A DNA stretch of 6,524 bases from a virus (taxonomy: Duplodnaviria; Heunggongvirae; Uroviricota; Caudoviricetes): the IMG/VR virus record IMGVR_UViG_2703718859_000008; one strand, given 5' to 3'. The notes under the pieces are model-generated. The model saw nothing but the letters and a program-made list of their open reading frames with translations. It was not told the DNA's origin and made no database searches. Positions 2,361 through 4,225 of this stretch are shown piece by piece; the first letter of the stretch is position 1, and each line of letters opens with the position of its first letter. Both the position numbers and the translations under genes were made by a program.

Positions 2361-2586
2361 GGCTTACATCCTCAGGAAATTTTCTTCTGTAACGCGCCTC
2401 TGCCACATATTCCGCATAATCGGCGGCGATATTCAGTACATCAAGCCCCGTTGATTTATATTCTCTCGTGGAAAGTAAGAAAAAAGCCGCTCTAATAAGT
2501 TCTGGCATTGACGAAAGCGCATCAGCCGCATCATCAGGAACGCCGGAAAATTCCTGTTTCAGGGAATTAAAACGATCATCACGCAT
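2353..2586 (-). CDS. hypothetical small protein (77 aa from ATG at 2586; ORF track extends to 2613)
   Basis: The ATG at 2586..2584 overlaps the stop of the upstream 79-aa gene in an ATGcgTGA arrangement, suggesting translational coupling. The upstream ATG at 2613 would lie deep inside the preceding gene. Confidence 0.45.
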   Translation of the reverse strand: MRDDRFNSLKQEFSGVPDDAADALSSMPELIRAAFFLLSTREYKSTGLDVLNIAADYAEYVAEARYRRKFPEDVSHA

Positions 2587-2818
2587 AACCCCCCCCATTT
2601 TCACAATCAGCAATCAGGATAGCTTTGGCCTCATTCAGCGCCATATCAGCACTAAGTTGCATAACCGCCAGCGAATGAGGGACGAAAGTCCCGGCATATT
2701 CTGTTTCACTGGTGGCGTGCTTATGTGCCCTGTCCGCGATAACAGAAATATCAATCAGCGCGTGCATCAGCGTTTTGATGGCTTCGGCGGCTGCGTCCGG
2801 TGTGGTTTTATTGTGCAT
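2579..2818 (-). CDS. hypothetical small protein (79 aa, MHNKTTPDAAAEAIKTLMHALIDISVIADRAHK...)
   Basis: C-terminal part of the 228-aa track ORF. The portion upstream of the ATG at 2818..2816 is Pro/Arg/Leu-rich and looks like off-frame translation. AGGGGGA Shine-Dalgarno about 6 nt upstream of this ATG. Confidence 0.45.
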   Translation of the reverse strand: MHNKTTPDAAAEAIKTLMHALIDISVIADRAHKHATSETEYAGTFVPHSLAVMQLSADMALNEAKAILIADCENGGGYA

Positions 2819-3368
2819 AGGTTTCCCCCTGGCGAATACGGGCGGCAAATACAGCAACACAACCGGACGGGCAACGGCTACGCGCTTCGCGTTCCGTCCA
2901 GGCGGTGACGTGGATGATTTGATGGTCTGACGCGCCAAAGATGATAAAGCGCCAGAGAAAGGCGGTTTGAGAATGTACAAGGGTAGGGATAGTAGCCATG
3001 TTGGCAGCCTCCTCAGTGTGGTTAAGATAACCGCCACCGGAAACGCCAATTTCGCTGGTGGCGGACTGTACAGGGTTGGCGTAACCGGACACTGAAGAAA
3101 CCGGCGCGGATTGCTCCGCCCCCGTACAGCCCACCATTGATAAGGTGTGACTATGCGGCACAAAAAAACACGCGGGGCGCGTGTTATGCGCTTCAGTTTT
3201 GCCCAGGACGCCAATCCCGGCACCCGTTTTATGAGGTGCGCGGGAATCATAGCTATTTTCGACACTGGCGATCAACTGGTTTTTTTCTCCGATATTCAGG
3301 GCCAGAAAACGCCACACAAAGGCCGTTTGTGTGTGTACAAGGTGTGGTATATGATTTACGGCAACCAT
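2808..3368 (-). CDS. hypothetical protein with two paralogous small modules (IPxLVHxQTAFxWRF motif twice) joined by a Gly/Ser/Ala-rich linker; possible in-frame internal start at 2999
   Basis: 186-aa ORF, first gene after the repeat-bearing intergenic region. GAGGAG Shine-Dalgarno 6 nt upstream of ATG 3368. A second in-frame ATG at 2999..2997 is preceded by GAGGAGG and begins the second copy of the motif. Differences between copies fall largely at third codon positions, consistent with protein-level conservation. Confidence 0.5.
   Translation of the reverse strand: MVAVNHIPHLVHTQTAFVWRFLALNIGEKNQLIASVENSYDSRAPHKTGAGIGVLGKTEAHNTRPACFFVPHSHTLSMVGCTGAEQSAPVSSVSGYANPVQSATSEIGVSGGGYLNHTEEAANMATIPTLVHSQTAFLWRFIIFGASDHQIIHVTAWTEREARSRCPSGCVAVFAARIRQGETYAQ
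3161..3184 (-). terminator. intrinsic-terminator-like hairpin plus T7 tract inside the coding region of the 186-aa ORF
   Basis: On the minus strand, 8-bp stem AACACGCG/CGCGTGTT with a 3-nt loop, followed by a run of T (plus-strand A7 at 3161-3167). In frame it encodes NTRPACFF. Confidence 0.3.
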
Positions 3369-3439
3369 AACGGCTCCTCGTTTACGTTGTTGGTTAGAAG
3401 CCCCGTTACTGCTCCTACAGTGCGGGGTTTCGTCTTTTC

Positions 3440-3545
3440 GTACATGAGATACACATAATCATCATGTGAGATACACGTTACATTGATGTGATATACATTT
3501 CAAGTTTTTTATATCTCACTTTACTGTATAGTGATATACACACAA
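3440..3545. promoter_or_regulatory. divergent promoter/operator region with phased GTGA(G/T)ATACAC repeats
   Basis: Direct copies at about 3445-3455 (TGAGATACACA), 3466-3476 (GTGAGATACAC), 3488-3498 (GTGATATACAT) and 3531-3543 (GTGATATACACAC), spaced about 21-22 bp or twice that. One inverted copy at 3511-3520 (ATATCTCACT). Lies between the start of the minus-strand operon (3368) and the plus-strand 100-aa gene (3563); AT-rich. Confidence 0.5.
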
Positions 3546-3562
3546 TAAACTGGTGATTAATT

Positions 3563-3865
3563 ATGTCCGTATACAAAAACGCAAAATCTCAAATGACAAC
3601 GCTCAGAGTCCCTCACGATGTCATGCAAGGCATGGAATCCGTTAAGCTGGACGGCGAGAGCAATGCAGGATTTATCGTAACCGCCATGCGCGGAGAAATA
3701 GCACGCCGCCAGGCAGAAGGCAGCGGAGAAAATCCCCTTGTGTCTTCACTGGATGCTCTGGCTAAGGTCGAACAAATCGGCATCAAAGCAGCGGAAGAAA
3801 TCGGGCAACTTGTCACCGTTGCACGCGAAGAACTCCAGCGTCGCAAGGCCAAAGAAGCGGAATAA
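3563..3865 (+). CDS. small putative DNA-binding regulator (100 aa; possible ribbon-helix-helix-like N-terminus), function unconfirmed
   Basis: Only convincing plus-strand ORF. GGTGA about 8 nt upstream of the ATG. N-terminal MTTLRVPHDV segment followed by predicted helices resembles a beta-strand-then-helix DNA-binding fold. Charged helical C-terminus. Followed by a plus-strand terminator. Confidence 0.5.
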   Translation: MSVYKNAKSQMTTLRVPHDVMQGMESVKLDGESNAGFIVTAMRGEIARRQAEGSGENPLVSSLDALAKVEQIGIKAAEEIGQLVTVAREELQRRKAKEAE

Positions 3866-3943
3866 TCCACCAGCAAACCACCACACTGATCACATTGCCC
3901 ACCAGCCAGCAAATCGCTATGATGTTCGGGCTTATGTTTAGTG

Positions 3944-3972
3944 TTTTCCCATTGGCGACCGCCCCCGGTCGC
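3944..3972 (+). terminator. rho-independent terminator for the 100-aa gene
   Basis: Stem GGCGACC (3944-3950), loop GCCCCC, stem GGTCGCC (3957-3963), followed by TTTGTTTTAT. Located between convergent genes (100-aa gene on plus, alpA-like gene on minus). Confidence 0.55.
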
Positions 3973-4000
3973 CTTTGTTTTATGTGTCATATGCTCCCCT

Positions 4001-4225
4001 TTACGCTGCCTTACCTGAATTAATGCGATCCCGGCTTTTAACCCATTCCATAACCTCGGACAGCAGCCAACCTACAGAACGACCGCCCAGATTAAGGCGT
4101 GACGGAAATCGCCCTTTTTTCTCCAGTTCGTAGCGTGTAGTACGACATACTCCAGTTAACTTACGACATTCATCCTCACGGATTACGCGATCTGATAGTG
4201 ATTGAAATTGTGTATTTTGATTCAT
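4001..4225 (-). CDS. alpA: AlpA-family (Phage_AlpA / excisionase-like HTH) transcriptional regulator
   Basis: 74-aa ORF. The segment CRKLTGVCRTTRYELEKKGRFPSRLNLGGRSVGWLLSEVMEWVKSR matches the conserved AlpA pattern (HTH, FP, LGxRSVGW, EW..R) as recalled from memory. Position near a P4-type integrase is typical. Confidence 0.8.
   Translation of the reverse strand: MNQNTQFQSLSDRVIREDECRKLTGVCRTTRYELEKKGRFPSRLNLGGRSVGWLLSEVMEWVKSRDRINSGKAA

Follow-up and report, generated by a model that had tools for sequence, protein, structure and literature searches.

A hairpin and U-tract inside an eta-like reading frame is probably the isrK/seqA terminator of a P4/P1-type immunity cassette

Satellite phage P4 offers one of the closest described systems. 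For P4, PMC4825925 describes a CI RNA that pairs with seqA and seqC, leading to premature termination of transcription, and the same paper treats IsrK as a structural homologue of P4 SeqA. Through such termination, the P4 replication operon is held off (PMC4825925, PMC10111431). In P4-like prophages, IsrK and C4 go under the names seqA and CI (PMC3632133). IsrK ends at a Rho-independent terminator, which part of the transcripts read through (PMC4825925). The summary of Forti 1999 given in PMC10111431 states that the promoter inside the P4 gene eta yields a quickly terminated transcript and that Kil is made on read-through; that translation of eta from the upstream late promoter prevents this termination; and that nonsense mutations in eta lead to premature termination. 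More generally, ribosome coupling blocks the formation of intrinsic hairpins (PMC5021804). In this study, we compared with these systems a terminator-like hairpin found inside the first gene of a phage operon.

The window, that is, the whole stretch of DNA analyzed, comprises 6,524 nt of IMG/VR virus record IMGVR_UViG_2703718859_000008. The original prediction did not take in a conserved internal promoter that lies 55 nt before the hairpin, the C4/CI gene 21 nt after it or a nested 63-aa gene. With these elements in place, the hairpin and its U-tract are, on the sequence evidence, very probably the terminator of the isrK/seqA RNA of a P4/P1-type immunity cassette, homologous to t1 of P4. The features are as follows, each with its basis.

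3287..3368, minus strand: 5' part of an icd-like gene, 'module 1' (comparison with E. coli S19-141).
3246..3275, minus strand: putative internal sigma-70-type promoter, PLE-like (promoter scan, conservation).
3163..3239, minus strand: IsrK/SeqA-like small RNA or leader (Rfam RF01394, covariance model R1).
3162..3185, minus strand: probable intrinsic-terminator hairpin with U7 tract (sequence, terminator scan, Rfam isrK alignment, shuffles, compensatory stem changes).
3054..3141, minus strand: C4/CI-type antisense immunity RNA (Rfam RF01695).
3008..3050, minus strand: seqC or a2-b2-like target region (sequence, duplex calculation).
2808..2999, minus strand: nested 63-aa Icd/Kil-like gene, 'module 2' (NCBIfam NF033153, PGAP equivalent).
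2808..3368, minus strand: eta-like 186-aa ORF (ORF list, Pfam, PHROG, open-frame conservation).

On the minus strand, the 5' arm of the hairpin, AACACGCG, occupies 3185..3178, the loop CCC 3177..3175 and the 3' arm, which reads CGCGUGUU / CGCGTGTT, 3174..3167. The site as a whole reads GCAUA ACACGCG CCC CGCGUGU UUUUUU GUGCC. The first two bases of the T7 run (3168..3162) are also the last two of the stem; hence, the site can be read either as an 8-bp stem followed by T5 or as a 6-bp stem followed by T7. The GC-rich 8-bp stem, 3-nt loop and T7 that had been predicted were all found, with G-C pairs at five of the eight stem positions, but the span had been given as 3161-3184 and is 3162-3185, a shift of 1 nt. 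The hairpin begins 183 nt past the ATG of the 186-aa ORF (3368..2808) on the coding strand, in agreement with the predicted distance of about 180 nt. Taken alone, it is of modest calculated stability (predicted stem energy −9.7 kcal/mol). It was among the three best terminator-like sites of the window in a generic scan. A strict search for at least 8 Watson-Crick pairs, at least 4 of them G-C, a loop of 3-8 nt and an adjacent T-run of at least 5 found one such site in the window versus a mean of 0.007 per dinucleotide-shuffled window (300 shuffles). A terminator on the plus strand was rejected: there, an A-run precedes the stem, no T-run follows it and the only candidate listed was a weak overlapping one of 5 bp. 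No claim is made for an outer helix around the terminator and U-tract because a mismatched-partner control scored almost as high.

Searching the whole window against Rfam returned two hits that pass the curated cut-offs, isrK and C4. The isrK match (RF01394, gathering threshold 50 bits) is full-length (model positions 1-77) and lies at 3239..3163 with 66.0 bits and E=7e-13; a purpose-built covariance model, R1, scored the same region at 74.5 bits. The match ends exactly in the hairpin and its U-tail, which the Rfam alignment places at model positions 56-77. Hairpin 1 of the RNA corresponds to 3239..3220, hairpin 2 (3218..3209) holds a b1-like target, GGGAUUGGCG, and the linker before the terminator carries an a1-like target, ACUGAAG (3197..3191). 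The locus has what is expected of an RF01394 member, namely a score above threshold, three hairpins ending in a GC stem with a U-tract, a promoter of its own and a C4 RNA downstream. The folding energy of the 85-nt isrK region was no better than that of shuffles (z=−0.96) and was uninformative.

The candidate internal promoter reads TTGATC-18-TATGAT, with the -35 element at 3275..3270, an 18-nt spacer and the -10 element at 3251..3246. The predicted transcription start, about 3239, coincides with isrK position 1 and lies 7 nt after the end of the -10 element. The hairpin is therefore best placed as the end of an RNA of about 77 nt, 55 nt downstream of the internal promoter, and that it falls 180 nt into the first gene is incidental. 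For the eta-like ORF itself, a sigma-70 scan of 3400-3560 gave no convincing upstream promoter, and the candidates found there by eye were weak. The intergenic region upstream contains five copies of TGTAT[AC]TCAC at 22-nt spacing.

The C4 match (RF01695; 77.6 bits against a gathering threshold of 45 bits, E=1.9e-14) extends over 3141..3054, begins 21 nt downstream of the U-tract and lies on the same strand as isrK. Its a' loop, UUUCUUCAGUGU, is at 3100..3089 and its b' segment, UUACGCCAACCC, at 3084..3073. Downstream of C4, AUUGGCGU (3050..3043) is complementary to b', and the a' loop is matched by ACACUGAGGAGG (3019..3008), within which lies the Shine-Dalgarno (SD) sequence of the icd/kil-like gene; read from the sequence, all 12 positions of the latter duplex can pair, three of them as G-U. 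On the upstream side, CGCCAACCC of C4 faces the b1-like target in isrK hairpin 2 as well as the site at 3050..3043, and the ACUGAAG directly 5' of the terminator opposes CUUCAGU of the C4 loop. C4 thus has complementary targets on both sides, with the SD of the first gene in the downstream one, as a C4 RNA should. The calculated duplex of C4 with isrK was stronger than in shuffles (−60.6 versus −47.9 ± 5.3 kcal/mol, 11/500), and so was that of C4 with the 79 nt downstream of C4 (−57.8 versus −44.2 ± 5.5 kcal/mol, 8/500), whereas the control, C4 with the region upstream of the promoter, showed no excess over shuffles (258/500). The c4-a1b1 model matched the 5' half of isrK below its threshold (21.2 versus 46.7 bits); the upstream target site is therefore proposed on complementarity only.

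The eta-like ORF is preceded by the SD GAGGAG (3379..3374), 5 nt before its ATG at 3368. It starts upstream of the internal promoter and reads through isrK, the terminator and C4, and its C-terminus is the Icd/Kil-like protein. The Pfam family Phage_ASH matches it with 63 bits (aa 40-133), compared with 82 bits for P4 eta, and phrog_29966 matches it from end to end with 364 bits. The nested 63-aa gene (ATG 2999) matches NCBIfam NF033153 (phage_ICD_like, cut-off 25 bits) with 58.9 bits, compared with 73.1 bits for the Kil part of P4 eta, and PGAP annotates its equivalent in E. coli 01_3327. This is nesting of the P4 eta/kil type, in which an ORF from upstream of the promoter spans seqA, cI and seqC and its Icd/Kil C-terminus has an SD of its own. 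The Icd-like pseudogene that PGAP places after alpA in a relative was not seen in the translation of window positions 3868-3990. The automated protein labels ('ash family protein'; PHROG 'transcriptional regulator/repressor') cover a stretch in which what is conserved is largely RNA information.

A C4 core pattern run against viral contigs hit 120 loci, and 95 distinct cassettes among these had full flanks. In about 90 of these 95, a hairpin followed by T5-T8 lies 20-130 nt upstream of C4; the terminator stems vary and include GACGCG, GGCGC, AGACGC, AACACGCG, AACCGCG, AGCGCC and ACCGCC. A three-hairpin covariance model found 102 copies. Among 79 distinct isrK-like homologues, the 19 pairs of the structure were 90.3% paired versus 77.5% in shuffles (0/500), a pairing somewhat inflated by the fitting of alignment A3 to the structure; slid-partner controls were 39-45% paired. 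MAFFT alignment A1, of four isrK sequences, misaligned the terminator of SfV and was left out of the model. Compensatory changes were seen in all three isrK helices of the 79 sequences, and overall covariation was 0.337 versus 0.129 in shuffles (0/500). In the terminator, the outer two pairs occur as GC58/CG12/AU4 and AU60/CG8/GC3/GU4; because the three inner pairs never vary, covariation is carried by the outer pairs only. A -35/-10 pair stands about 7 nt before isrK +1 in nearly all of 74 distinct upstream sequences, that of P4 included.

The reading frame is conserved together with the RNAs. From -150 to +150 around the C4 start, one sense frame is free of stops in 84 of the 95 cassettes, and the long frame is open through the cassette in 84-87 of them; the other two sense frames contain 2.1 and 4.5 stops on average (open in 3 and 10 of 95), and 2 of 95 cassettes are open on the antisense strand. 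The open frame survives terminator-to-C4 spacers of 21-107 nt. From these sequences we conclude that the frame of the long ORF is maintained, as it is in P4 eta, and that the peptide specified across the RNAs is probably not what selection acts on. The original prediction had also offered the hairpin as a sign of a wrong gene model. The model is incomplete, in that it omits the two RNA genes, the internal promoter and the nested gene, but the long ORF stands: it is widely open across cassettes, follows a strong SD and is the counterpart of P4 eta. At the DNA level, unrelated phages match the region only at 3239..2980, from isrK through the start of icd. The matches include SfV (annotated 'immunity region'), a P1-like phage (Icd), and Stx and cdt phages, and the isrK-C4 pair is present in SfV and in a P1-like phage.

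The P4 genome (NC_001609) holds a promoter (TTGCCT-18-TATAGT), an isrK match and a C4 match in window-like order. The isrK match (60.8 bits) ends in GACGCG-CCA-CGCGUC and T7, followed by GUG, and its terminal hairpin is the only terminator-like site in the 1.2 kb examined. The C4 match (74.9 bits) is the CI RNA. In P4, as in the window, the hairpin is the sole terminator-like site between a PLE-like promoter and C4, the position of t1, and we take the P4 hairpin between PLE and cI to be terminator t1. Briani is said in 2000 to have described t1 as a Rho-independent site between PLE and cI that needs CI RNA and seqA. The 214-aa ORF of P4 (eta) begins upstream of the promoter, and three consecutive Met codons in it would give proteins of 197-199 aa; its tail, a 65-aa segment starting MATTLTPSHP, is the nested gene kil.

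The hairpin had been placed between two paralogous modules. The placement is right, and the likeness of the modules is limited to 16 aa (IPxLVHxQTAFxWRF; 12/16 identical, E=6e-9). The closest E. coli island, S19-141, is 98.3% identical over 94% of the window, and neither an isrK nor a C4 match was found in it. It carries a single 65-aa Icd-like gene, the N-terminus of which is module 1 and the C-terminus module 2. The difference is an in-frame block of about 360 nt (about 3286..2926 in the window) that contains the promoter, isrK with its terminator, C4, seqC, the SD and a second icd 5' end. The two modules are explained by this comparison, because S19-141, which is without the cassette, has one icd-like gene. 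Two histories are possible: either an icd-like gene received the cassette by insertion, or recombination between direct repeats of about 50 nt removed it from S19-141.

Several other readings of the hairpin were weighed. That it is a functionless chance palindrome in coding sequence is extremely improbable: the ordinary folding energy of the 85-nt region would suit such a reading, which is refuted by the shuffle expectation of 0.007 and by the retention of position and structure, with compensatory changes, in nearly all cassettes. The T7 run had also been suspected of being prone to sequencing error or frameshifting. As a rival reading, it would be an error of sequencing or assembly, or else a site of programmed slippage or frameshifting that changes the frame of the first gene. 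In the window, the run does stand in X XXY YYZ phase (UGU UUU UUU GUG), and no stop interrupts the +1 frame from 3265 to 2579. However, T7 is identical in independent near-identical sequences, a run of T6-T8 follows the hairpin throughout the family, as a terminator tail would, and no shift is needed for the ORF to stay intact. P4 (GUC UUU UUU UGU) and the SfV type have the run in other phases, few cassettes have the alternative frames open and the -1 frame stops 3 codons later. In addition, the hairpin lies upstream of the run, whereas a frameshift stimulator is expected 5-9 nt downstream. A programmed -1 frameshift site was rejected, as the heptamer is in phase only in the window and the alternative frames are not conserved, and error or slippage of any kind is very improbable.

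Two further readings accept the conserved RNAs. One holds that the 186-aa ORF is no gene, that the region consists of the isrK and C4 RNAs followed by the 63-aa gene and that the long ORF and the Pfam 'Ash' family are artefacts that arise when conserved RNA genes are translated. In its favor, the Phage_ASH match coincides with the isrK-C4 stretch, and DNA conservation with unrelated phages covers exactly 3239..2980. Moreover, in a relative that is 96.6% identical, the 'ash family protein' is annotated by PGAP as a pseudogene, and the codon phase across the hairpin is one base apart between the window and P4; hence, the peptide at the hairpin is not conserved. Nevertheless, the stop-free sense frame is set against frequent stops in the two other sense frames and an antisense strand that is rarely open, and it stays intact over spacers of very different length. 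The strong SD and the end-to-end phrog_29966 match argue the same way, as do the P4 eta nonsense mutations (Forti 1999, summarized in PMC10111431). The evidence for a maintained frame appears stronger, which makes a purely non-coding region quite improbable. The other reading gives the hairpin the main role of making a trans-acting IsrK-type activator of icd/kil-like translation, as in Gifsy-1. The isrK score above threshold would fit, and so would the 250-nt read-through RNA, in which the middle of isrK is predicted to pair in cis with the C4 loop (z=−4.35), resembling 'structure A' of Hershko-Shalev 2016. The context, however, is P4-like (integrase, AlpA, replication helicase, eta/kil) and not a lambdoid antirepressor locus. 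Moreover, the activator and attenuator roles are compatible, and both require the hairpin as a terminator. We regard this as the main role of the hairpin as somewhat unlikely. The regulatory sign may differ between elements, because the short IsrK of Gifsy-1 is a translational trans-activator.

The preferred reading remains that of an isrK/seqA terminator, and the earlier proposal of an intragenic attenuator limiting the downstream genes, including the helicase, gains support from the homology with the P4-type terminator. The anatomy, homology, conservation and complementarity of the cassette follow from the sequences: a putative constitutive internal promoter, isrK/seqA with its terminator, C4/CI, and seqC over the SD of the nested icd/kil-like gene lie in frame within the longer eta-like ORF. 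For its workings, we consider the following scheme, built by analogy with P4 and Gifsy-1 IsrK, somewhat more probable than its alternatives taken together. Transcripts from the internal promoter would mostly stop at the hairpin and yield a short RNA, and those that read through would provide the precursor of the C4/CI RNA. C4/CI may then pair with the seqA-like sites 5' of the hairpin, strengthening termination and controlling its own level, and with seqC and the SD, blocking icd/kil translation and favoring termination further downstream. In the lysogen, the downstream replication genes, including that of the RepA-family helicase, would thereby stay silent. Transcripts begun at a promoter upstream of 3368 would carry the start of the eta-like ORF, and ribosomes translating it would mask the hairpin and the antisense targets, so that transcription continues. 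The open frame retained in 84 of 95 cassettes lends this last step indirect support. Termination at this site, its efficiency and its dependence on C4 are what we infer from the described systems.

A terminator inside the 'first operon gene' seems paradoxical until the promoter, the two RNA genes and the nested gene are recognized. The locus would then be a lysogeny/immunity switch that silences the replication genes of the island. The value of this assignment lies mainly in annotation and interpretation. The open frame (84/95) and the presence or absence of the cassette in near-identical islands may also guide work on the competition between translation and antisense RNA at intrinsic terminators. 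We tentatively propose, as a conjecture with slightly less than an even chance of being right, that the isrK-C4 cassette of about 360 nt is a portable module placed in frame within icd/kil-type genes, with translation through it as an immunity override throughout the family. If so, the override device that is demonstrated only for P4 eta would be a general, largely unrecognized property of the RNA-immunity family, and an open frame would be selected through the promoter, the terminator and two RNA genes in nearly all cassettes, whether P4-like, P1-like or lambdoid. The 'Ash family protein' of Pfam and NCBI would then be chiefly a ribosome track and not a folded protein.

Among known systems, t1/seqA of P4, where PLE, seqA, t1, cI, seqC and timm follow one another inside eta/kil, shares with the window a GC stem of 6-8 bp, a 3-nt loop and T7 followed by GUG, an internal promoter that ends about 7 nt ahead of the RNA, and a long ORF that runs from upstream of the promoter to an Icd/Kil-family end. 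The two differ in the spacer between terminator and C4 (21 nt in the window, 107 nt in P4) and in the codon phase described above. The N-terminus of the eta-like protein is a duplicated icd 5' end in the window and is unrelated to that of P4 eta. Unlike in P4, alpA is not the neighbor preceding the ORF; the two are separated by a divergent YlcI/YnfO-family gene and an intergenic region filled with repeats. For replication, the window has a RepA-family helicase where P4 has alpha.

IsrK of Gifsy-1 (RF01394), like the RNA in the window, has three hairpins, a promoter of its own and a Rho-independent end, and its read-through reaches a C4-like RNA (STnc1160) and downstream genes, as in the window layout. 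Gifsy-1 differs in being a lambdoid prophage with orf45 and the antirepressor AnrP downstream. Its IsrK has been shown to activate translation in trans (Hershko-Shalev 2016).

The P1 cassette controls an antirepressor. In immI of P1/P7 (c4-icd-ant; RF01695, RF03163), C4 is flanked by an upstream a1b1 and a downstream a2b2 site, and the SD of an icd-type gene falls within the latter; both points hold for the window, although the a1b1 model stays below threshold there (21 bits). The cassette of the window precedes replication genes, in which it resembles P4 and differs from P1. The hairpin is very probably a regulatory terminator of a kind already described in P4 (1990s-2000) and for Salmonella IsrK (2016), and the curated Rfam models detect it.

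The immunity cassette (internal promoter, isrK/seqA-like RNA with its terminator, and C4 RNA) is a natural presence/absence polymorphism between the window and an island of E. coli S19-141. Regions 3290-3590 of the island (L125) and 2926-3286 of the window were compared. The island, 98.3% identical to the window, is devoid of the entire promoter-isrK-C4 cassette. It carries a single 65-aa Icd-like gene, composed of the N-terminus of module 1 (the 5' icd-like part of the eta-like ORF) and the C-terminus of module 2 (the nested icd/kil-like gene). Two or three tandem isrK-like copies are present in some phage contigs (L023, L109, L040, L013, L067, and L102), and the copies are ~655 nt apart in the first four. 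This arrangement suggests arrays of stacked immunity cassettes.

Downstream of the icd-like gene, a 79-aa ORF (window 2579-2818, - strand; MHNKTTPD...) starts at ATG 2818 and overlaps the icd-like stop codon (ATGcacaaTAA). This ORF is likely the real next gene. The 228-aa ORF proposed by the ORF finder (3265..2579), which runs through C4, is likely a spurious upstream extension of it.

Two further terminator-like hairpins and a set of repeats were located in the window:
3313-3333, - strand: second terminator-like hairpin, CACACAAA-CGGCC-TTTGTGTG, then GCGTTTTCTG
3954-3973, + strand: strong terminator-like hairpin, GGCGACCG-CCCC-CGGTCGCC, then TTTGTTTTAT
3444, 3466, 3488, 3510, and 3531 (starts): copies of TGTAT[AC]TCAC, one inverted

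The hairpin at 3313-3333 lies within module 1, 5' of the internal promoter, and cannot form in the paralogous stretch of module 2. The hairpin at 3954-3973 separates the YlcI/YnfO-family gene (3563..3865, + strand), downstream of which it lies, from an alpA-like gene (4225..4001) that converges on it. In the S19-141 relative, the stretch that corresponds to window 3868-3990 carries an Icd-like pseudogene fragment according to PGAP; no such fragment is recognisable in the translation of this stretch of the window. The five repeats (3444-3540, spacing ~22 nt) are intergenic, with the YlcI/YnfO-family gene on one side and the eta-like ORF on the other. The chance expectation was 0.54 copies, and five were reached in no shuffle. 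The repeats look like candidate operators or iterons for some DNA-binding protein.

An additional outer helix, GCGCA/UGUGC, could enclose the terminator and its U-tract through pairing of their flanks (window 3186-3190 with 3159-3163). The counterparts are GCGACAU/GUGUCGC in phage P4 (L004, about 2105-2146), GGCGAU/AUCGUC in the SfV type, and GCGCAU/AUGCGU in L018. The helix is weakly supported, because a control with mismatched partners scored nearly as high (at least 5 bp in 79%). It would be possible in read-through RNA only. The 250-nt read-through RNA (window 2990-3239, - strand) is predicted to be unusually stable (predicted folding, -109.3 versus -87.9 ± 4.9 kcal/mol; z=-4.35). In the predicted fold, the C4 loop region is paired in cis with the middle of isrK, and this pairing resembles the translationally inactive 'structure A' of Gifsy-1 isrK.
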